Source of the DNA: Centroscyllium fabricii
Lineage: Eukaryota
DNA: 64,000 nt
Reading direction: 5' to 3'
Assembly (NCBI GenBank): GCA_051313645.2
Contig: JBNRSN020000002.1
Location: forward strand, 135,222,001-135,286,000
A program made the position numbers and the translations under genes. The notes under the pieces were generated by a model. It was not told the DNA's origin, made no database searches, and saw only the letters and a list, made by a program, of their open reading frames with translations. Below, piece after piece: positions 9,473 through 64,000 of this stretch; within the stretch, counting starts at the first letter, position 1, and each line of letters starts with the position of its first letter.

Positions 9473-10231
9473 TTAAATCAGAATTGTTAAATGCAAAATG
9501 CCTTGGTTCACTGTATTCTTAGCCTTATCATTTGTCACTCTTTCATATGCGTAAAACTTTGGAAACTTTCATTCTGTATAAGGTCCTTTATCCTTGTATG
9601 TCAGCTATTTATCATTTCTGAAAAGCATACAGGCAGACGAGTGCAGTCCACCATCAATAAATATGTAGCTCCATAGGAGATGAAATATTTTCAACCTTTA
9701 TCTTGCTCCTTAAATTATTTACCATTGAGATTACCTATATCACAGGTTGACAGATATTTGTATTGCAAAAAATAAATAAAGATTCAGTCAATTCGTTTAA
9801 TAAGAGTGCTTTGCTGCCGTTGTGCTTTAAGTGGCTCCAGCAGTTTTTTTTAATTCTTGTTTTGTCATGCCGAGGCAGCCCATTGAGTGGGCAACAGATC
9901 ACTGTCCAATTGCACAAAGTTAGGTGCATGTTTCGCTGTGTACCCATCCTGCTAACAATGTACCCATGTCCGAATATTTACCCTTGTGCATAGATCATAA
10001 TTTTCTGGCAAATTTTTGAGGATCATACTGAAGTGTGGAATAAAGGAAAGCAAATAAAACTCTGATCAAATGTAACAAATATCTTTTTTTATTCCTTCTG
10101 CCACTTTTTGGGGAAATTGTGATTTTAAAATAATTGATATATTTTATGTAGAATCTATCATCTCCCACAGACTGCAATATAAAGCAATCAGTTGACACTC
10201 CAATATGGTAAAGCAACAGGGGTTCTTCATT

Positions 10232-10890
10232 TTTTTTAAATTCATTGTTGGGATGTGGGCGTCGCTGGCTGGCTAGGCCTGCATTTAGTGCCCATCCCTA
10301 ATTGCCCTTGAGAAGATGGTGGTGAGCCGCCTTCTTGAACCGCTGCAGTCCATATGGTGTAGGTACACCCACAATGTTGTTAGGAAGGGAGTTCCAGGAT
10401 TTTGGCCCAGCGACAGTGAAGGAGCGGCGATACAGGTCCAAGTCAGGATGGTGTGTGGCTTGGAGGGGAACTTGCAGGTGGTGCTGTTCCCATGCGTCTG
10501 CTGCCCTTGTCCTTCTAAGTGGTAGAGGTCGCGGGTTTGGAAGGTGCTGTTGAAGGAGCTTTGGCGAGTTGCTGCAGTGCATCTTGTAGATGGTACACAC
10601 TGCAGCCACAGTGCGCCGGTGGTGGAGGGAGTGAATGTTGAAGGTGGTGGATGGAGTGCCAATCAAGCGGCCTGCTTTATCCTGAATGGTGTCGAGCTTC
10701 TTGAATGTTGTTGGAGCTGCACTCATCCAGGCAAGTGGAGAGTATCCCATCACACTCCTGACTTGTGCCTTGTAGATGGTGGAAAGTCTTTGGGGAGTCA
10801 GGAGGTGAGACACTCGCCGCAGAATTCCCAGCCTCTGGCCTGCTCTTGTAGCCACAGGATGTTGATAGTGGGGGATTCAGCGATGATAAT
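10232..10890 (-). mobile_element. 3' part of an L2/CR1-group LINE
   Basis: Minus-strand ORF ...LSTIYKAQVRSVMGYSPLAW...LDTIQDKA...SWNSLP...FKKAAHHHLLKGN, with the same 3' end as 28066-28388. Confidence 0.8.
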
Positions 10891-11455: not shown

Positions 11456-11931
11456 TTTGCTTCATCATAGATATCAACCAACAGGTAGGAGTCTCCCTCC
11501 TGCTGCATCTCAGCCAAATTTTACTGAGTACCAATGTTATGTAGTTTGGTACTGAGCTGTCGGGAGCCCTTTTACTTGTTGGTCAATACTCCTAAATATC
11601 CAATAAATAATAAATATTTTTATGTGTACATTGATGTGGAAGGGGCTCCTGGACAGAGGTAGCAGTCGATGGCAGCAGCAGGACCAGGGCAGGAGTTTTT
11701 CGCGGGTCTTTCTTTTCAACAGCAGGCAGCGGGACGGTACTAGGAGGAGACAACAGGAGGCGGCGGCTATAAAGGCAAGCAGGGTAAGTGATTTTTTTAT
11801 TTTTATTTTTATTTCTTTTTCTGAGGTCTCTGTGGTATAACGGGGACTTCTGATAGACTAGCACCCTAGTATATATCTTGTTTTTTTGGTGGTGTTAAAT
11901 TTTTTTGCAAAAGTAATTAGAGGGGTACGTC

Positions 11932-12882
11932 ATGTCAGTGGAGCTCGGTGCCGTGCTTTGCTCAACCTGCCACATGTGGGAAGTCATGGACACCACTGGA
12001 GTCCCTGACGACCATGTGTGCGGGAAATGCGTCCACCTTCAGTTACTGACTGACCGCATTGCGGCACTGGAACTGAGGGTAGATGGGTTATGGAGCATTC
12101 GTGATGCTGAGAGGTGCGTGGATTACTCATACAGTGAGCTGGTCACACCGCAGGCTAAGGGTGTGCAGGCAGAAGGGAAATGGGTGACCATCAGAAAGAG
12201 CAGTAAGGCCAGGCAGGTAGAGCAGGAAACCCCTGTGGCCATCCCCCTCACGAACAAGTATACCGTTTTGGATACTGTTGGGTGGGATGACCTACCAGGG
12301 GAATGCAGCAGTAGCCAACCTCCGGGCACTGGGGTTGCTTCTGCTGTTCAGCTGGGGGGGAAAAGGCGTGAGAGAGCAATAGTGGTAGGGGACTCTATCG
12401 TAAGGGGAGCAGATAGGCGTTTCTGTGGCCGTAGACGTGACTCCAGGATGGTCTGTTGCCTCCCTGGTGCCAGGGTCAAGGATGTCATGGAATGGCTGCA
12501 GGACATCCTGAAGGGGGAGGGAAACCAGTCAGAGGTCGTTGTACACATAGGAATCAACGACATAGGTAAAAAGAGGGATGAGGTCCTGCAACAAGAATTC
12601 AGGGAGCTAGGCAGAAAATTAAAGTGCAGGACCTCAAAGGTTGTAATCTCTGGATTACTCCCTGTGCCACGATTTAGTGAGTATAGGAATAGAAGGATAG
12701 AGCAGCTTAATACGTGGCTCAAGAGTTGGTGCAGGAGGGAGGGCTTTAGTTTCCTGGATAACTGGCCCTGTTTCTGGGAAAGGTGGGACTTGTATGGGGA
12801 GGACGGTCTCCACCTTAACCGGAGGGGGACCAATATCCTGGTGGGGAGGTTTGCTAGCATGGTTGGGGAGGGTTTAAACTAA
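11932..12882 (+). CDS. CR1 ORF1p: N-terminal zinc finger plus SGNH/GDSL esterase domain
   Basis: CSTC...CGKC, then a leucine-zipper-like stretch, then VVGDSIVR, CLPGA, HIGINDI and DGLHLN motifs. Confidence 0.92.
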   Translation: MSVELGAVLCSTCHMWEVMDTTGVPDDHVCGKCVHLQLLTDRIAALELRVDGLWSIRDAERCVDYSYSELVTPQAKGVQAEGKWVTIRKSSKARQVEQETPVAIPLTNKYTVLDTVGWDDLPGECSSSQPPGTGVASAVQLGGKRRERAIVVGDSIVRGADRRFCGRRRDSRMVCCLPGARVKDVMEWLQDILKGEGNQSEVVVHIGINDIGKKRDEVLQQEFRELGRKLKCRTSKVVISGLLPVPRFSEYRNRRIEQLNTWLKSWCRREGFSFLDNWPCFWERWDLYGEDGLHLNRRGTNILVGRFASMVGEGLN

Positions 12883-15800
12883 CTTGGCAGGGGGTTGGGA
12901 TACGGAGTGGAGCAAAAATAGGGGGTGGCGAAAAGGCTAATATAGAGGAAAAAACAAGTCAGGAGGCTGAAAAAAGGGAAACAAGAAAAAAAGATAAAGA
13001 CAGAAAGGAGAAAAGCAAAAGTATAAGGCAGGGAGATCAACGGGTAAAATCAAACAGGACCGCAGGTAATAAAAATGCACAATGGTCGGGTAAAGTGAAA
13101 AAAAAAACAAGCCTGAAAATCTTGTATCTTAATGCAAGAAGCATTCGGAACAAGGTAGATGAATTATCTGTAGAAATAGAGGCAAACAAATATGATTTGG
13201 TTGCGATTACAGAAACATGGCTGCAGGGTGGACAAGGCTGGGAACTTAACATACCAGGGTATACAATATTTAGGAAGGATAGGCAAAAAAGAAAGGGAGG
13301 TGGGGTGGCATTACTGGTGAGGGAGGGGATTAACTCAATTGAAAGGACTGATATTAACTCAGATGATGCGGAATCTGTATGGGTAGAACTGAGGAATAGC
13401 AAGGGGCGAAAAATGTTGCTGGGAGTGGTATATAGACCGCCAAATAGTAATATGGAGGTTGGGGAAGGCATAAAAAGGGAAATTAAAGAAGCGTGCAATA
13501 AGGGCACAGCTGTCATCATGGGTGACTTTAATTTACATATAGATTGGACTAGCCAGATTAGTAACAACGCGATGGAGGAGGAATTTCTGGAGTGTATACG
13601 AGATGGTTTCCTGGACCAATATGTCGAGGAACCAACTCGGGATCAGGCCATCTTAGACTGGGTACTGTGCAATGAGAAGGGATTGATTGGCAATCTTGTT
13701 GTACGAGGCCCATTGGGGCGGAGCGATCATAATATGATCGAATTCTCACTCAGAATGGAGAGGGAAGAAATTGACTCGGAGACTAAGGTCCTAAATTTAA
13801 GAAAAGGGAACTATGATGGTATGAGACGAGAGTTGGGTAAAATTGATTGGGGGGTGTCGCTCAGGGGGCTGACGGTGGAACAACAATGGCAGGCATTCAA
13901 AGATCGAATGGAAGAAGCGCAGAGCTTGTTTATACCAGTTTGGAATAAAAATAAACCAAAAAAGGTGACTCAACCGTGGATAACAAGGGAAATTAGGGAT
14001 AACATAAAAACCAAAGAAAGGGCGTATCAACTGGCCAAAAAAAGCATCAAACCTGAAGATTGGGAACAATTCAGGATACAGCAAAGGAGGACAAAGGGAT
14101 TAATTAAGAAGGGGAAAATAGATTACGAAAGAAGGCTTGCGGCAAACATAAAAACTGACTGCAAAACCTTTTACAGATACATTAAAAGGAAGAGACTGGT
14201 GAAATCCAGAGTCGGGCCCCTGCAGTCCGAATCAGGAGATTATATAACGGGGAACAAGGAAATGGCAGACCAATTAAATTCATATTTTGGTTCTGTCTTC
14301 ACGGAGGAGGACACAAATAGCCTCCCGGAGATGTCGGGGAACATAGGGACTAATGAGAGGGAGGAACTGAAAGAAATCAATATCTCTAAGGATATGGTGT
14401 CCGGGAAATTGAAAGGATTAAAGGCCGACAAATCCCCAGGGCCTGATAATCTGCATCCTAGGGTGCTTAAGGAAGTGGCCCTGGAGATATCAGATGCTTT
14501 GAGGATCATTTTCCAGAACTCAATAGACTCTGGAATGGTGCCCAGGGATTGGAGGGTAGCTAATGTTACCGCACTATTCAAAAAGGGGGGTAGAGAGAAG
14601 GCGGGGAATTATAGACCGGTAAGCCTTACATCGGTTGTGGGCAAAATGCTAGAATCCATTATTAAGGACGTAATAGCAGATCACTTGACTAAGAGTGATG
14701 GGATCGGACACAGTCAACATGGATTTACAAAAGGTAAATCGTGCTTGACTAATCTATTGGAATTCTTCGAGGATGTAACCGATAAAATAGATAGGGGAGA
14801 GCCAGTAGATGTGGTTTATCTGGACTTCCAGAAAGCCTTTGACAAGGTCCCTCATAGGAGATTGGCAGGCAAAATTAAGGCTCATGGGATTGGGGGCAAG
14901 GTACTGGCGTGGATAGAGAACTGGTTGGCAGATAGAAAACAGAGAGTTGGGATAAACGGGTCGTTTTCTGATTGGCGGGCAGTGACTAGTGGGGTACCAC
15001 AGGGGTCGGTACTGGGACCCCAGCTGTTCACAATATATATTAATGACCTGGATGAGGGAATTGGATGTAACATCTCCAAATTCGCAGATGACACTAAGCT
15101 TGGAGGGGGAGTATGCTCTGAGGAGGATGTCGGGAAGCTCCAGAGCGACCTGGACAGATTGGGGGATTGGGCGAACACATGGCAAATGCACTATAATGTG
15201 GATAAATGTGAGGTTATCCACTTTGGTAGCAAAAACAGAGAGGCAGAGTATTATTTGAACGGCAATAGATTGGGAGATGGGGAAGTGCAAAGAGATCTGG
15301 GTGTTCTTGTGCACCAGTCACTGAAGGTGAGCATGCAGGTGCAGCAGGTGGTTAAAAAGGCAAATGGTATGTTGGCCTTTATATCAAGAGGGTTTGAGTA
15401 TAGGAATAGGGATGTCTTGCTGCAGCTGTACAGGGTCTTGGTGAGGCCACACCTTGAGTATTGTGTGCAGTTTTGGTCACCGCCTCTGAGGAAGGATGTT
15501 CTTGCCATGGAGGGAGTGCAGCGACGATTCACCAGGCTGATACCTGGGATGGCAGGAATGACTTATGAGGAGAGATTGTGTAGTCTGGGCTTATACTCGC
15601 TGGAGTTTAGAAGATTAAGAGGGGATCTCATCGAGACTTATAAAATTCTGTCAGGCTTGGACAGGTTAGATGCAGAAAGGATGTTTCCGATGGCCGGGGA
15701 GTCGAGAACCAGGGGGCATAGTCTAAGGATAAGGGGTAAGCCTTGTAGGACTGAGATGAGGAGGAAATTCTTCACACAGAGAGTGGTGAACCTGTGGAAT

Positions 15801-15920
15801 TCCTTGCCACAGAGGGCGGTGGAGGCCGGTTCATTGAATATATTCAAGAGGGAACTGGATATATTTCTTCAGGCTAAAGCGATTAAGGGATATGGGGAGA
15901 AGGCAGGGACTGGGTACTGA
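12858..15920 (+). CDS. CR1 ORF2p: APE endonuclease plus reverse transcriptase (frame open from 12858, no upstream ATG)
   Basis: YLNARS, ITETW, MGDFN, SDH (APE); SPGPD, NYRPVSL, QHGF, GVPQGS, FADD (RT). Stop-free from the TAG at 12855-12857 to the TGA at 15918-15920. Confidence 0.93.
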   Translation, partial: HGWGGFKLTWQGVGIRSGAKIGGGEKANIEEKTSQEAEKRETRKKDKDRKEKSKSIRQGDQRVKSNRTAGNKNAQWSGKVKKKTSLKILYLNARSIRNKVDELSVEIEANKYDLVAITETWLQGGQGWELNIPGYTIFRKDRQKRKGGGVALLVREGINSIERTDINSDDAESVWVELRNSKGRKMLLGVVYRPPNSNMEVGEGIKREIKEACNKGTAVIMGDFNLHIDWTSQISNNAMEEEFLECIRDGFLDQYVEEPTRDQAILDWVLCNEKGLIGNLVVRGPLGRSDHNMIEFSLRMEREEIDSETKVLNLRKGNYDGMRRELGKIDWGVSLRGLTVEQQWQAFKDRMEEAQSLFIPVWNKNKPKKVTQPWITREIRDNIKTKERAYQLAKKSIKPEDWEQFRIQQRRTKGLIKKGKIDYERRLAANIKTDCKTFYRYIKRKRLVKSRVGPLQSESGDYITGNKEMADQLNSYFGSVFTEEDTNSLPEMSGNIGTNEREELKEINISKDMVSGKLKGLKADKSPGPDNLHPRVLKEVALEISDALRIIFQNSIDSGMVPRDWRVANVTALFKKGGREKAGNYRPVSLTSVVGKMLESIIKDVIADHLTKSDGIGHSQHGFTKGKSCLTNLLEFFEDVTDKIDRGEPVDVVYLDFQKAFDKVPHRRLAGKIKAHGIGGKVLAWIENWLADRKQRVGINGSFSDWRAVTSGVPQGSVLGPQLFTIYINDLDEGIGCNISKFADDTKLGGGVCSEEDVGKLQSDLDRLGDWANTWQMHYNVDKCEVIHFGSKNREAEYYLNGNRLGDGEVQRDLGVLVHQSLKVSMQVQQVVKKANGMLAFISRGFEYRNRDVLLQLYRVLVRPHLEYCVQFWSPPLRKDVLAMEGVQRRFTRLIPGMAGMTYEERLCSLGLYSLEFRRLRGDLIETYKILSGLDRLDAERMFPMAGESRTRGHSLRIRGKPCRTEMRRKFFTQRVVNLWNSLPQRAVEAGSLNIFKRELDIFLQAKAIKGYGEKAGTGY

Positions 15921-16261
15921 ACGTGTAAGATCAGCCATGATCTCATTGAATGGCGGAGCAGGCTCGAAGGGCCGAATGGCCTACTCCTGCTCCTATCTTC
16001 TATGATTCTATGATTCTATGATGCAACATTTTATAAGAAAAAATTGTGATTTATGAGTTTTGGGAAGTTTAGAAAATATGCTAGGAGATGTATTTGATAG
16101 AAACCCTAGGCAGCTTGTCAAATATACCAACATTTTGCAAAAGAAGAAAGGTTTTGCACTCCACTGAATGTTTATTTCCCAGTTATTTCAGTTAAGAACA
16201 TAAAATTCTGTGAACAATAAGTAGTTACTTGGGTTATCCAGCATGTTCCTTTATAAAAAGA

Positions 16262-16698: not shown

Positions 16699-18215
16699 GG
16701 AACGGTAGCATAGAGGTAATGTCACTGGTTTAGTAATCCAAATGCCTGGACTAATGATCCAGAGACGTGAGTTCAAATCCCACCACGGCAGCTGGGGAAT
16801 TTAAATTCAGTTATAGTTAGTATCAGTAATGGTAAACATGAAACTATCTGAATGTCATAAAAACCCATCTGGTTCACTAATGTCCTTTAGGGAAGGAAAT
16901 CTGTTGTCCTTACCCGGTCTGGCCTGTATGTGACTCAATTGTAACAAATCACTACGAAACACAATAATAAGAATGAAACCGGACGGACCACCTGCCATCG
17001 ACCTCGGCACTGGCACATCCAGCTCATTCGACCCAGCAAAGTCCTCACCAACATTTTGGGACTTGTGCCAAAATTGGGAGAGCTGTCCCACACACTAGTC
17101 AAGCAACAGCCTGCCATAGTCATGCTCACAGAATCATACCTTTCAGCCAATGTCCCAAGCTCCTCCATCACTATCCCTGGGTATGTCCTGTCCCACCGGC
17201 AGGACAGACCTGCTAGGGGTGGTAACACAGTGGTATACAGTCAGGAAGGAGTGGCCCTGGGAGTCCTGAACATTGACTCTGGACCCATGACGTCTCATGG
17301 CTTCAGGTCAAGCATGGACAAGGCAGCCCTCCTGCTGATTACCACCTACCGCCCTCCTTCCGCTGATGAATCAGTACTCCTCCATGTTGAACACCACTTG
17401 GAACAAGCACTGAGAGTAGCAAGGGCACAGAATGTACTCTGGGTGGGGGACTTCAAGGTACAGCACCACTACTGACTGAGCTGGCCATGTCCTGAAGGAC
17501 ATAACTGCCAGTATGGGTGATGAGAGAACCAACACAAAGGAAAAACCTACTCACCAATCTACCTGTCGCAGATGCATCTGTCCATGACAGAATTGTTAGT
17601 AGTGACCAACGCACAGTCATTGTAGAGACAAAGTCCCGTCTTCATACTGAGGACACCCTCCATCGTGTTGTGTGGCACTACCACCGTGCTAAATGGGATA
17701 GATTCAAAACAGATCTAGCAGCTCAAAACTGAGTCTCCATGAGGTGCTGTTGGCCATCAGCAGCAGCAGAATTGTATTCCACCACAATCTGTAAACTCAT
17801 GGCCTGGCACATTCCTCACTCTACCATTACCATCAAGGCAGGGGACCAACCCTGGTTCAACAACAAATGTAGAAGAGCATGCCAGGAGCAGCACCAGGTA
17901 TACCTTAAGATACGGTGCCAACCTGGGGAACTGCAACACAGGACTATATGCATGCTAAAAAGCAGAAGCAGCATGCTGTAGGCAGAGCTAAGTGATCCCA
18001 CAATCAACAGATCAGATCAAAGCTCTGCAGTCCTGCCACATCCAGTTGTGAATGGTGGTGAACCATTAAACAACTAACTGGAGGAGGAGACTCCATGAAC
18101 ATCCCCATCCTCAATGATGGCGGAGCCCAGCACATGAGTGCAAAAGACAATGCTGAGCGTTTGCAACCATCTTCAGCCAGAAGTGCTGAGTGGATGATCC
18201 ATATCAGCCTCCTCT
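16699..18215 (+). mobile_element. Degenerate 5' part of an L2/CR1-group LINE with a tRNA-like head
   Basis: A/B-box-like head (TAGCATAGAGG...GAGTTCAAATCC) followed by broken APE-domain frames (MLTESYL, IPGY, DR..RGG, YRPP, VGDF, SD, DQPWFN). Confidence 0.72.
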
Positions 18216-59795: not shown

Positions 59796-60688
59796 AGAAT
59801 CATAGAATAGAATCATAGAATTATAGAATAGGATCATAGATTATAGAATAGAATCATAGATTATAGAATAGAATCATAGAATTATAGACTAGAATCACAG
59901 AACTATAGAATAGAATCATAGATTGTAGAATAGAATCATAGAATAGAATAGAATCATAGAATAGAATCATAGATTATAGACTAGAATCACAGAACTATAG
60001 AATAAAATCATAGATTGTAGAATAGAATCATAGAATAGAATAGAATCATAGAATAGAATCATAGATTATAGAATAGAATCATAGAATTATAGAATAAAAT
60101 CACAGATTATAGAATAGAATCGTAGATTATAGAATAGAATCATAGAATATAATTATAGAATAGAATAATAGATTATAGACTAGAATCATAGAATTACAGA
60201 ATAGAATCATAGATTATAGAATAGAATCATAGAATTATAGAATAGAATCATAGATTATAGAATAGAATCATAGATTATAGAATAGAATCACAGAATTGTA
60301 GAATAGAATCATAGATTATAGAATAGAATCATAGAATAGAATCATAGATTATAGAATAGAATCATAGATTATAGAATAGAATCACAGAATTGTAGAATAG
60401 AATCACAGATTATAGAATAGAATCATAGAATAGAATCATAGATTATAGAATAGAATCATAGTTTATAGAATAGAATCATAGAATAGAATCATAGATTATA
60501 GAATAGAATCATAGTTTATAGAATAGAATCTTAGATTATAGAATAGAATCACAGAATTATAGAATAGAATCATAGATTATAGAATAGAATCATAGAATTA
60601 TAGAATAGAATCATAGAATAGAATCATAGATTATAGAATAGAATCATAGATTATAGAATAGAATCATAGTTTATAGAATAGAATCATA
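59793..60688 (-). repeat. ~900-bp simple-repeat array of AGAAT / CATAGAAT / TATAGA(A)T units
   Basis: Directly visible. Its reverse complement is built from the CR1 tail octamer ATTCTATG and the pentamer ATTCT. Confidence 0.95.
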
Positions 60689-60689
60689 T

Positions 60690-63600
60690 GTCGTTGTACA
60701 CATAGGAATCAACGACATAGGTAAAAAGAGGGATGAGGTCCTGCAACAAGAATTCAGGGAGCTAGGCAGAAAATTAAAGTGCAGGACCTCAAAGGTTGTA
60801 ATCTCTGGATTACTCCCTGTGCCACGATTTAGTGAGTATAGGAAAAGAAGGATAGAGCAGCTTAATACGTGGCTCAAGAGTTGGTGCAGGAGGGAGGGCT
60901 TTAGTTTCCTGGATAACTGGCCCTGTTTCTGGGAAAGGTGGGACTTGTATGGGGAGGACGGTCTCCACCTTAACCGGAGGGGGACCAATATCCTGGCGGG
61001 GAGGTTTGCTAGCATGGTTGGGGAGGGTTTAAACTAACTTGGCAGGGGGTTGGGATACGGAGTGGAGCAAAAATAGGGGGTGGCGAAAAGGCTAATATAG
61101 AGGAAAAAACAAGTAAGGAGGCTGAAAAAAGGGAAACAAGAAAAAAAGATAAAGACAGAAAGGAGAAAAGCAAAAGTATAAGGCAGGGAGATCAACGGGT
61201 AAAATCAAACAAGACCGCAGGTAATAAAAATGCACAATGGTCGGGTAAAGTGAAAAAAACAAGCCTGAAAACCTTGTATCTTAATGCAAGAAGCATTCGG
61301 AACAAGGTAGATGAATTATCTGTAGAAATAGAGGCAAACAAATATGATTTGGTTGCGATTACAGAAACATGGCTGCAGGGTGGACAAGGCTGGGAACTTA
61401 ACATTCCAGGGTATACAATATTTAGGAAAGATAGGCAAAAAATAAAGGGAGGTGGGGTGGCATTACTGGTGAGGGAGGGGATTAACTCAATTGAAAGGAC
61501 TGATATTAACTCAGATGATGCGGAATCTGTATGGGTAGAACTGAGGAATAGCAAGGGGCGAAAAATGTTGCTGGGAGTGGTATATAGACCGCCAAATAGT
61601 AATATGGAGGTTGGGGAAGGCATAAAAAGGGAAATTAAAGAAGCGTGCAATAAGGGCACAGCTGTCATCATGGGTGACTTTAATTTACATATAGATTGGA
61701 CTAGCCAGATTAGTAACAACACGATGGAGGAGGAATTTCTGGAGTGTATACGAGATGGTTTCCTGGACCAATATGTCGAGGAACCAACTCGGGATCAGGC
61801 CATCTTAGACTGGGTACTGTGCAATGAGAAGGGATTGATTAGCAATCTTGTTGTACGAGGCCCATTGGGGCGGAGCGATCATAATATGATCGAATTCTCA
61901 CTCAGAATGGAGAGGGAAGAAATTGACTCGGAGACTAAGGTCCTAAATTTAAGAAAAGTGAACTATGATGGTATGAGACGAGAGTTGGGTACAATTGATT
62001 GGGGGGTGTCGCTCAGGGGGCTGACGGTGGATCAACAATGGCAGGCATTCAAAGATCGAATGGAAGAAGCGCAGAGCTTGTTTATACCAGTTTGGAATAA
62101 AAATAAACCAAAAAAGGTGACTCAACCGTGGATAACAAGGGAAATTAGGGATAACATAAAAACCAAAGAAAGGGCGTATCAACTGGCCAAAAAAAGCAGC
62201 AAACCTGAAGATTGGAAACAATTCAGGATACAGCAAAGGAGGACAAAAGGATTAATTAAGAAGGGGAAAATAGATTATGAAAGAAGGCTTGCGGCAAACA
62301 TAAAAACTGACTGCAAAACCTTTTACAGATACATTAAAAGGAAGAGACTGGTGTAATCCAGAGTCGGGCCCCTGCAGTCCGAATCAGGAGATTATATAAT
62401 GGGGAACAAGGAAATGGCGGACCAATTAAATTCATATTTTGGTTCTGTCTTCACGGAGGAGGACACAAATAGCCTCCCAGAGATGTCGGGAAACATAGGG
62501 ACTAATGAGAGGGAGGAACTGAAAGAAATCAATATTTCTAAGGATATGGTGTCCGGGAAATTGAAAGGATTAAAGGCCGACAAATCCCAAGGGCCTGATA
62601 ATCTGCATCCTAGGGTGCTTAAGGAAGTGGCCCTGGAGATATCAGATGCTTTGAGGATCATTTTCCAGAACTCAATAGACTCTGGAATGGTGCCCAGTGA
62701 TTGGAGGGTAGCTAATGTTACCCCACTATTCAAAAAGGGGGGTAGAGAGAAGGCGGGTAATTATAGACCGGTAAGCCTTATATCGGTTGTGGGCAAAATG
62801 CTAGAGTCCATTATTAAGGACGTAATAGCAGATCACTTGACTAAGAGTGATGGGATCGGACACAGTCAACATGGATTTAGAAAAGGTAAATCATGCTTGA
62901 CTAATCTATTGGAATTCTTCGAGGATGTAACCGATAAAATAGATAGGGGAGAGCCAGTAGATGTGGTTTATCTGGACTTCCAGAAAGCCTTTGACAAGGT
63001 CCCTCATAGGAGATTGGCAGGCAAAATTAAGGCTCATGGGATTGGGGGCAAGGTATTGGTGTGGATAGAGAACTGGTTGGCAGATAGAAAACAGAGAGTT
63101 GGGATAAACGGGTCATTTTCTGATTGGCGGGCAGTGACTAGTGGGGTACCACAGGGGTCGGTACTGGGACCCCAGCTGTTCACAATATATATTAATGACC
63201 TGGATGAGGGAATTGGATGTAACATCTCCAAATTCGCAGATGACACTAAGCTTGGAGGGGGAGTATGCTCTGAGGAGGATGTCAGGAAGCTCCAGAGCGA
63301 CCTGGACAGATTGGGGGATTGGGCGAACACATGGCAAATGCACTATAATGTGGATAAATGTGAGGTTATCCACTTTGGTAGCAAAAACAGAAAGGCAGAG
63401 TATTATTTGAATGGCAATAGATTGGGAGATGGGGAAGTGCAAAGAGATCTGGGTGTTCTTGTGCACCAGTCACTGAAGGTGAGCATGCAGGTGCAGCAGG
63501 CGGTTAAAAAGGCAAATGGTATGTTGGCCTTTATAGCAAGAGGGTTTGAGTATAGGAATAGGGATGTGTTGCTGCAGCTGTACAGGGTCTTGGTGAGGCC

Positions 63601-64000
63601 ACACCTTGAGTATTGTGTGCAGTTTTGGTCGCCGCATCTGAGGAAGGATGTTCTTGCCATGGAGGGAGTACAGCGACGATTCACCAGGCTGATACCTGGG
63701 ATGGCAGGAATGACTTATGAGGAGAGATTGTGTAGTCTGGGCTTATACTCGCTGGAGTTTAGAAGATTAAGAGGGGATCTCATCCAGACTTATAAAATTC
63801 TGTCAGGCTTGGACAGGTTAGATGCAGAAAGGATGTTTCCGATGGCCGGGGAGTCGAGAACCAGGGGGCATAGTCTAAGGATAAGGGGTAAGCCTTGTAG
63901 GACTGAGATGAGGAGGAAATTCTTCACACAGAGTGGTGAACCTGTGGAATTCCTTGCCACAGAGGGCGGTGGAGGCCGGTTCATTGAATATATTCAAGAG
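60690..64000 (+). mobile_element. Second, 5'-truncated copy of the young CR1 family, inactivated, running off the window
   Basis: Colinear and nearly identical to 12535 onward. Nonsense change AAA>TAA at 62354-62356 and a 2-nt deletion near 63930. Confidence 0.95.

Follow-up and report, generated by a model that had tools for sequence, protein, structure and literature searches.

A slippery heptamer at the ORF1-ORF2 junction of a shark CR1 LINE and its relatives: evidence for a candidate programmed -1 frameshift

The stretch of DNA analysed here (the window) covers 64,000 nucleotides of Centroscyllium fabricii contig JBNRSN020000002.1 (positions 135,222,001 to 135,286,000, forward strand) and holds a full-length long interspersed nuclear element (LINE) of the CR1 type, whose two open reading frames, ORF1 and ORF2, overlap (Table 1). 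The original prediction for this DNA was that a programmed -1 ribosomal frameshift joins the two ORFs. From the anatomy of the junction, the conservation of a slippery heptamer and its phase in all 16 lineages compared, linkers that keep the -1 phase and in several subfamilies lack any ATG, and a sister lineage in which the two ORFs are naturally fused, we infer that such a frameshift very probably operates here, a reading drawn from sequence comparison.

The CR1 element and its ORF1-ORF2 junction

The reading frame of ORF1 runs from 11917 to 12882 and encodes an SGNH esterase domain (PF13472, E 2.7e-14), the best solved-structure relative of the protein being PDB 4C1B (E 1e-42), while ORF2 carries an APE endonuclease followed by a reverse transcriptase, the order found in esterase-type CR1. 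The 3' ends of CR1 elements consist of short 8-nt repeats in place of poly(A), and the GATTCTAT repeats at about 16002-16022 fit a tail of this type. The element is assigned to CR1 on the basis of this domain layout, its tail and the homologues of its ORF1 in turtles, lizards and birds.

Table 1. Features of the CR1 element and of a second copy in the window
Feature	Position	Strand	Remarks
Full-length CR1 LINE	11636-~16022	+	17 sibling copies start alignment at 11636
5' untranslated region (UTR)	11636..11931	+	shared alignment start of 17 sibling copies
ORF1	11932..12882	+	ATG at 11932; 316 aa, C-terminus EGLN-stop; Cys motifs and a coiled-coil-like segment at the N-terminus, followed by SGNH/GDSL esterase
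Slippery heptamer U_UUA_AAC, X_XXY_YYZ register	12873..12879	+	invariant in 16/16 lineage representatives
ORF1 stop TAA	12880..12882	+	abuts heptamer; its T, together with the C before it, opens the first -1-frame codon (Leu)
Linear G-rich motif GGGGG-NN-GGG, candidate 3' stimulator	12890..12899	+	runs at 12890-94 and 12897-99; 10 nt past heptamer; conserved across lineages
-1-frame linker	12879..13109	+	K/E/R/G-rich, ATG-less, open; length and sequence depend on subfamily, phase constant
ORF2 APE endonuclease and reverse transcriptase	13110..15920	+	intact; PF03372, PF14529, PF00078; first ATG 13413
3' UTR	15921..16022	+	ends in (GATTCTAT)-type repeats, without poly(A)
Second copy, same subfamily, 5'-truncated	60687..64000	+	identical junction, heptamer 61028-61034; internal ORF2 stop near 62354; extends past window end

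The 3' end of ORF1 reads GAG GGT TTA AAC TAA, which places T_TTA_AAC in the X_XXY_YYZ register directly before the stop. The frame of ORF2 lies at -1 relative to ORF1 and is free of stops from 12858 to 15920 (1020 codons), and its first ATG falls within the APE domain, the Pfam match to which (PF03372) begins at ORF2 residue 92. The predicted ORF1-ORF2 fusion is 1329 aa long. On all of these points the sequence agrees with what had been claimed; the linker, given as about 70 codons, is K/E/R-rich and open as described, but the distance from the heptamer to the start of the endonuclease is about 80 codons. Two features of a programmed -1 site are thus present, an in-register X_XXY_YYZ heptamer within the overlap and a -1 frame that is open into the downstream gene, and U_UUA_AAC ranks among the shiftiest heptamers on mammalian ribosomes (PMC5009743). 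The same junction is found in the second copy of the window and in the 30 nearest genomic copies fetched. Within the window alone, 12-mer matches with two mismatches occur at the level of chance (12 against 8.3 expected), and the significance of the junction comes from its conservation across lineages and not from this single site.

A second slippery site had also been proposed in the overlapping G_GGT_TTA (12870-12876). It is likewise in the X_XXY_YYZ register in the window, but the preceding codon varies by lineage (GGT, GCT, GAT, ACT, TCT, TGT) and the site was rejected as lineage-specific.

Conservation of the heptamer and of the linker phase

At the protein level, 120 ORF1 homologues were listed, of which 92 could be scored (last esterase motif no more than 32 residues from the end) and 28 could not. 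A Leu-Asn-stop C-terminus is present in 87 of the 92, and in 84 of these 87 the ORF1 end lies exactly 26 residues from where the esterase DGLH motif begins, the intervening residues being variable. The Leu-Asn set includes named proteins of sharks, rays, a bony fish, frogs, turtles, lizards and a hummingbird, the closest named relatives being shark and ray proteins. In two database proteins, derived from out-of-frame copies, the junction instead reads FKL, the -1 reading of the same letters; a ray gene model that reads ORF1 via FKL into the endonuclease was not counted, as it may represent one broken copy.

At the DNA level, junctions were located with a profile that leaves out the Leu-Asn columns. 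A readable junction was obtained at 17 of 44 metagenome loci, at which the ORF1 ends resemble bird and reptile proteins (24 loci had no junction match and three more were truncated at the junction), and 13 of the 17 have an in-register TTTAAAC. Pooling all sources gave 188 junctions in 30 clusters, of which 138 read TTTAAAC, 48 belong to the fused lineage described below (TTTAAAT) and two read otherwise. Given that many of the pooled junctions were pattern-selected or fetched twice, a count by lineage is fairer: across 16 representatives with less than 80% identity to each other (mean upstream identity 0.51; one from a heptamer-selected set), all seven positions of the heptamer are invariant in 16/16, including three synonymous positions, and the stop lies directly 3' of the heptamer in all lineages compared. 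No third position in the 25 codons upstream, other than those of the heptamer, exceeds 0.81 conservation. The junction is therefore real and deeply conserved, its nucleotide conservation exceeds what the protein would need, and the comparison with other CR1 elements that had been proposed as a check of the heptamer and its phase comes out in favour of the frameshift.

It could be argued that Leu-Asn is kept for the function of the esterase and that the heptamer is a by-product, and in a 29-sequence alignment L315 and N316 are indeed invariant. This is scarcely credible for three reasons: first, the fixation extends to synonymous choices (TTA among six possible Leu codons, AAC among the two for Asn, and the preceding T), for which the element's own codon use would give a joint frequency of about 0.015 per lineage. 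Second, among genome sites that code for FA-x4-EGLN-stop, 14,308 of 15,236 use GGT TTA AAC, although these are copies of few masters and not independent. Third, the solved chain of the ZfL2-1 esterase stops short of the Leu-Asn columns.

The linkers lead to the same reading. Depending on the subfamily, the Leu codon and the first endonuclease motif are 107, 125, 149, 161, 167, 194, 203, 239, 245 or 248 nt apart, values that are all in the -1 phase, and that phase is kept in 91 of the 109 non-fused copies in which the start of the endonuclease was located. Up to about 12911, a sister subfamily (L195, L197, L198, L201, L202 and others) matches the window element at 94-98% identity; from just past the G-rich motif it carries a different linker that is 28 codons shorter and still ATG-less, which reads as a swap of modules immediately 3' of the motif. 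Across the window subfamily and this sister, 42 of 44 copies have no ATG in the linker. The constant phase is what had been asked of active copies, and several subfamilies have no linker ATG.

The conserved UUUAAAC-stop-G-run could, on the other hand, be a signal for a separate ORF2 product, made by termination-reinitiation or by AUG-independent initiation past the ORF1 stop. The stop always abuts the heptamer, and some subfamilies do have ATGs in the linker. Reinitiation has been proposed for L1 and is the documented route of SART1 (PMC3708506), and for L1 an unusual form of initiation is the favoured view (PMC5009743). Nevertheless, this scenario is very unlikely: in the window family the first 178 codons past the heptamer contain no ATG, no AUG overlaps or adjoins the ORF1 stop in the manner of SART1, and the nearest near-cognate codon is an ATA 18 nt beyond the stop. 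Where linker ATGs occur, they have no conserved place. Furthermore, separate initiation leaves unexplained both the perfect X_XXY_YYZ heptamer and a -1 frame that is open from the heptamer onwards, and the fused lineage, which has lost the stop, went on spreading.

It is also conceivable that the join is made in the RNA, either through insertion of a base by a slipping polymerase or through use of a splice acceptor close to the junction. Short runs of T, A and G occur at the junction, and the window family has CTAAC followed by TTGGCAG/G, resembling a branch point and an acceptor. However, where cis preference holds, a LINE copy is a cDNA of the enzyme's own mRNA and an RNA-level join would be recorded in new copies, yet of 4,602 junctions of the window family 4,598 are normal, only three have an extra base and one lacks a base. 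The runs before the stop do not exceed 4 nt, there is no pyrimidine tract, and CTAAC with its AG is absent from most other lineages, which together make a join at the RNA level highly improbable.

A sister lineage with ORF1 and ORF2 in one frame

A genome search with divergent ORF1 returned copies with open frames of 1317 codons, which belong to subfamily B of this genome (G000; for example loci L115-L133 and L155-L174). Their junction reads GCT TTA AAT CTA ATT where the slippery relative has GCT TTA AAC TAA TT; the one extra T at the end of the heptamer puts ORF1 and ORF2 into a single frame, and the resulting junction peptide, ...ALN-LISGG..., is the product predicted from a -1 slip in the slippery relative. 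Exact-pattern counts in the genome gave 850 dispersed fused junctions and 2,870 of the slippery relative, with none for the reversed controls. Longer, fused ORF1 proteins were also sought in the protein database, with four matches, one of them the ray gene model mentioned above.

A tree was built from 80 fetched regions, of which 78 had the junction, 67 had enough ORF2 and 64 remained after the removal of three near-identical duplicates. The 31 fused copies form a single branch (SH-aLRT 100) with sub-branches of its own; with one old slippery copy as the root, this branch falls within the youngest slippery ones. When 20 fused and 20 slippery copies were sampled without selection, ORF2 identity within the two sets was 97.9% and 92.5%, respectively, and the fused lineage is younger than its slippery relatives; a comparison of intactness was discarded, given that those copies had been chosen by the length of their open frame. 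The 3' flanks are of 25 different kinds among the 27 fused copies with a located tail, and it is from these differing flanks and the dispersal of the copies that the insertions are taken as independent; a search for target-site duplications found only scattered 6-8 nt matches, which were treated as chance.

Changes shared by at least three fused copies were compared with private ones, with CpG sites excluded and a rough count of sites. In the endonuclease-reverse transcriptase (EN-RT) region the shared changes are 19 nonsynonymous and 24 synonymous (dN/dS about 0.28) and the private changes have a dN/dS of about 0.99 (Fisher p 1.6e-4). This purifying selection on EN-RT indicates that the lineage likely spread with its own enzyme while ORF2 was joined to ORF1. 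Fusion is therefore compatible with spreading, but it does not follow that fusion is required.

Every fused copy examined has a -1-frame stop after two codons, such that a ribosome slipping at the retained U_UUA_AAU would release a near-normal ORF1p. This raises the possibility of an inverted switch, and only the possibility, because the -1 stop in question predates the insertion of the base.

Two further observations concern these copies. In subfamily B (L115 and relatives) the 5' UTR contains, about 1250-1800 nt before the junction, tandem units of ~192 nt that resemble monomer promoters. Near-identical fused copies are abundant (L129-L132; contigs C1333, C856 and C719), and the three examined share the same 3' flank, which suggests segmental or tandem amplification of a single insertion.

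The downstream G-rich motif, the proposed mechanism and known systems

A conserved G-run begins 10 nt after the heptamer and is followed two bases further by a GGG; across 15-16 lineages G has a frequency of 87-100% at the first four positions and of 80-93% in the second run. G-runs had been noted about 6-10 nt downstream, and they are present, with the conserved run at the far end of that range. In the -1 frame the run also codes for Gly-x-Gly. With a folding model that leaves out pseudoknots and long-range pairing, a hairpin better than shuffled sequence was obtained in 0 of 17 junctions (z -1.72 or weaker throughout), no fold rose above shuffles in three segments of the window, and within that model nothing corresponds to the canonical coronavirus- or retrovirus-type structure 5-9 nt downstream. 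A hairpin stimulator was accordingly set aside.

An intramolecular G-quadruplex, as had been suggested from the window, would be a variant of the same frameshift. The window site has a G4Hunter score of 1.6, within the top 0.3% of the element's 25-nt windows, and synthetic quadruplexes do stimulate frameshifting (PMC5009743). This variant is rather unlikely, given that ViennaRNA predicts a quadruplex in only 7 of the 17 junctions and none in the other 10, that only two G-tracts are conserved in position and that subfamily B has one long G-run plus a GG. Structural stimulators have spacers of 5-9 nt, the arterivirus and cardiovirus sites have spacers of 11-14 nt, and distant stimulators, which can be linear RNA, are tied to trans-acting factors (PMC5009743). 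Since the spacer here is 10 nt, the preferred guess, by analogy, is that the G-rich motif acts as a linear element bound by a protein.

In a long-branch fused sub-lineage (L160 and L163; also L043) a G-to-T change lies inside the conserved run. Once frameshifting is no longer needed, constraint on the motif may weaken.

Most ribosomes would stop at the end of ORF1 and release ORF1p, and a minority likely slip by -1 on U_UUA_AAC to give an ORF1p-ORF2p fusion, which might afterwards be cleaved or persist. The pause that aids the slip probably comes from the stop codon adjoining the site together with the linear G-rich motif at 10 nt, possibly protein-bound; a hairpin or a fixed G-quadruplex is disfavoured as its source. 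In its widest form, the proposal is that the esterase-type CR1 of jawed vertebrates has made a Gag-Pol-like polymerase fusion by -1 frameshifting since the split of sharks and birds, with a novel stimulator (the adjacent stop and, at 10 nt, a linear G-run that a protein probably recognises), and that in one shark lineage the switch has been inverted, fusion being the default and a slip on U_UUA_AAU into the stop two codons later freeing ORF1p. As a whole, this wider account is tentative and less likely than not to hold.

The folding results weigh against a -1 frameshift at this junction, as do several other observations. The heptamer is lacking in 2 of the 30 clusters (single copies, not representatives) and in 4 of the 17 readable metagenome junctions, and 18 of the 109 copies are off-phase, 14 of these 18 belonging to the older subfamily B and several having a changed G-run length; heptamer-less junctions and off-phase copies are read here as decay after insertion. 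The 16 lineages share ancestry, such that 16/16 does not amount to 16 independent draws. Several subfamilies other than that of the window and its sister carry one to four linker ATGs at no fixed place, among them, with four, the subfamily from which the fused clade arose, so independent initiation of ORF2 is possible there. Finally, the shared ORF1 changes of the fused clade (L115-L174) are 10 nonsynonymous to one synonymous, which looks neutral: fusion may be tolerated rather than needed, and after fusion ORF1 could have lost constraint or come under positive selection.

Esterase-type (ORF1 type IV) CR1 LINEs of vertebrates are described with two ORFs, an esterase ORF1 and an APE-RT ORF2 (PMC4120745), and the window element resembles them in its zinc-finger/leucine-zipper-like ORF1 N-terminus, esterase, APE-RT ORF2 and microsatellite-like tail. 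The passages of that account that describe them make no mention of frameshifting, overlap or fusion, and the single-ORF CR1/L2 groups it lists carry a PHD domain, unlike the fused lineage here, which joins a whole esterase ORF1 to ORF2. No statement of frameshifting for CR1 was found in the literature searched, although early CR1 papers and the entry notes of Repbase and Dfam could hold one. Among non-LTR elements the mechanism has a precedent: according to the legend of a review figure, ORF2 of Dictyostelium TRE5-A and TRE3-A depends on a -1 frameshift (PMC5911963); both elements are likewise of the APE type, but belong to another clade and host and have an unrelated ORF1. What is new is the in-frame fused CR1 lineage.

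Coronavirus-type U_UUA_AAC sites and retroviral gag-pol offer the same heptamer and register and the joining of a structural ORF to a polymerase ORF, but have a structure 5-9 nt downstream, whereas in CR1 the stop abuts the heptamer, no fold is conserved and a G-run stands at 10 nt (PMC5009743). The protein-stimulated sites of arteriviruses (nsp1-beta with PCBP) and cardioviruses come closest in their long spacer (PMC5009743), a likeness in layout only, as the CR1 motif is G-rich and its binding factor hypothetical. SART1, with its UAAUG reinitiation, and mammalian L1 also have a bicistronic LINE RNA and need little ORF2p; CR1 differs in having no stop-start overlap or conserved AUG and an ORF2 that overlaps ORF1 in the -1 frame.

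The translation of ORF2 is a long-standing open point for LINEs, put down in reviews of L1 and SART1 to reinitiation or to an unknown form of initiation (PMC3708506, PMC5009743), and a conserved, retrovirus-like frameshift makes the CR1 case testable on about 60 nt. In chicken, CR1 dominates the interspersed repeats (PMC11835228), and it is also abundant in the C. fabricii genome. If the frameshift is real, the annotation of CR1 changes, in that annotated ORF2 'starts' would be artefacts and the real enzyme would bear an esterase head, and the analogy with Gag proposed for esterase ORF1p (PMC3905857) would gain support. The fused lineage, for its part, is a natural in-frame control at about 850 sites, and its spread to that number bears on whether the ratio of ORF1p to ORF2p matters.

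A few minor observations concern annotation and the surroundings of the element. A CR1 ORF1 protein 62% identical to that of the window (P0008) bears the annotation of an SGNH/GDSL hydrolase from Pseudomonas aeruginosa, probably through contamination, and other CR1 ORF1s have been merged into host gene models (40S S24, TMEM204, NUBP1, HAO2). Decayed fragments of other LINEs, with frames resembling a reverse transcriptase C-terminus and an endonuclease, flank the element at 9995-10876 (-) and 16945-18000 (+). Directly 5' of the second CR1 copy, ATAGA/ATCATAGA-type repeats extend over ~900 nt (59796-60686) and resemble the expanded tail of an element in the opposite orientation.

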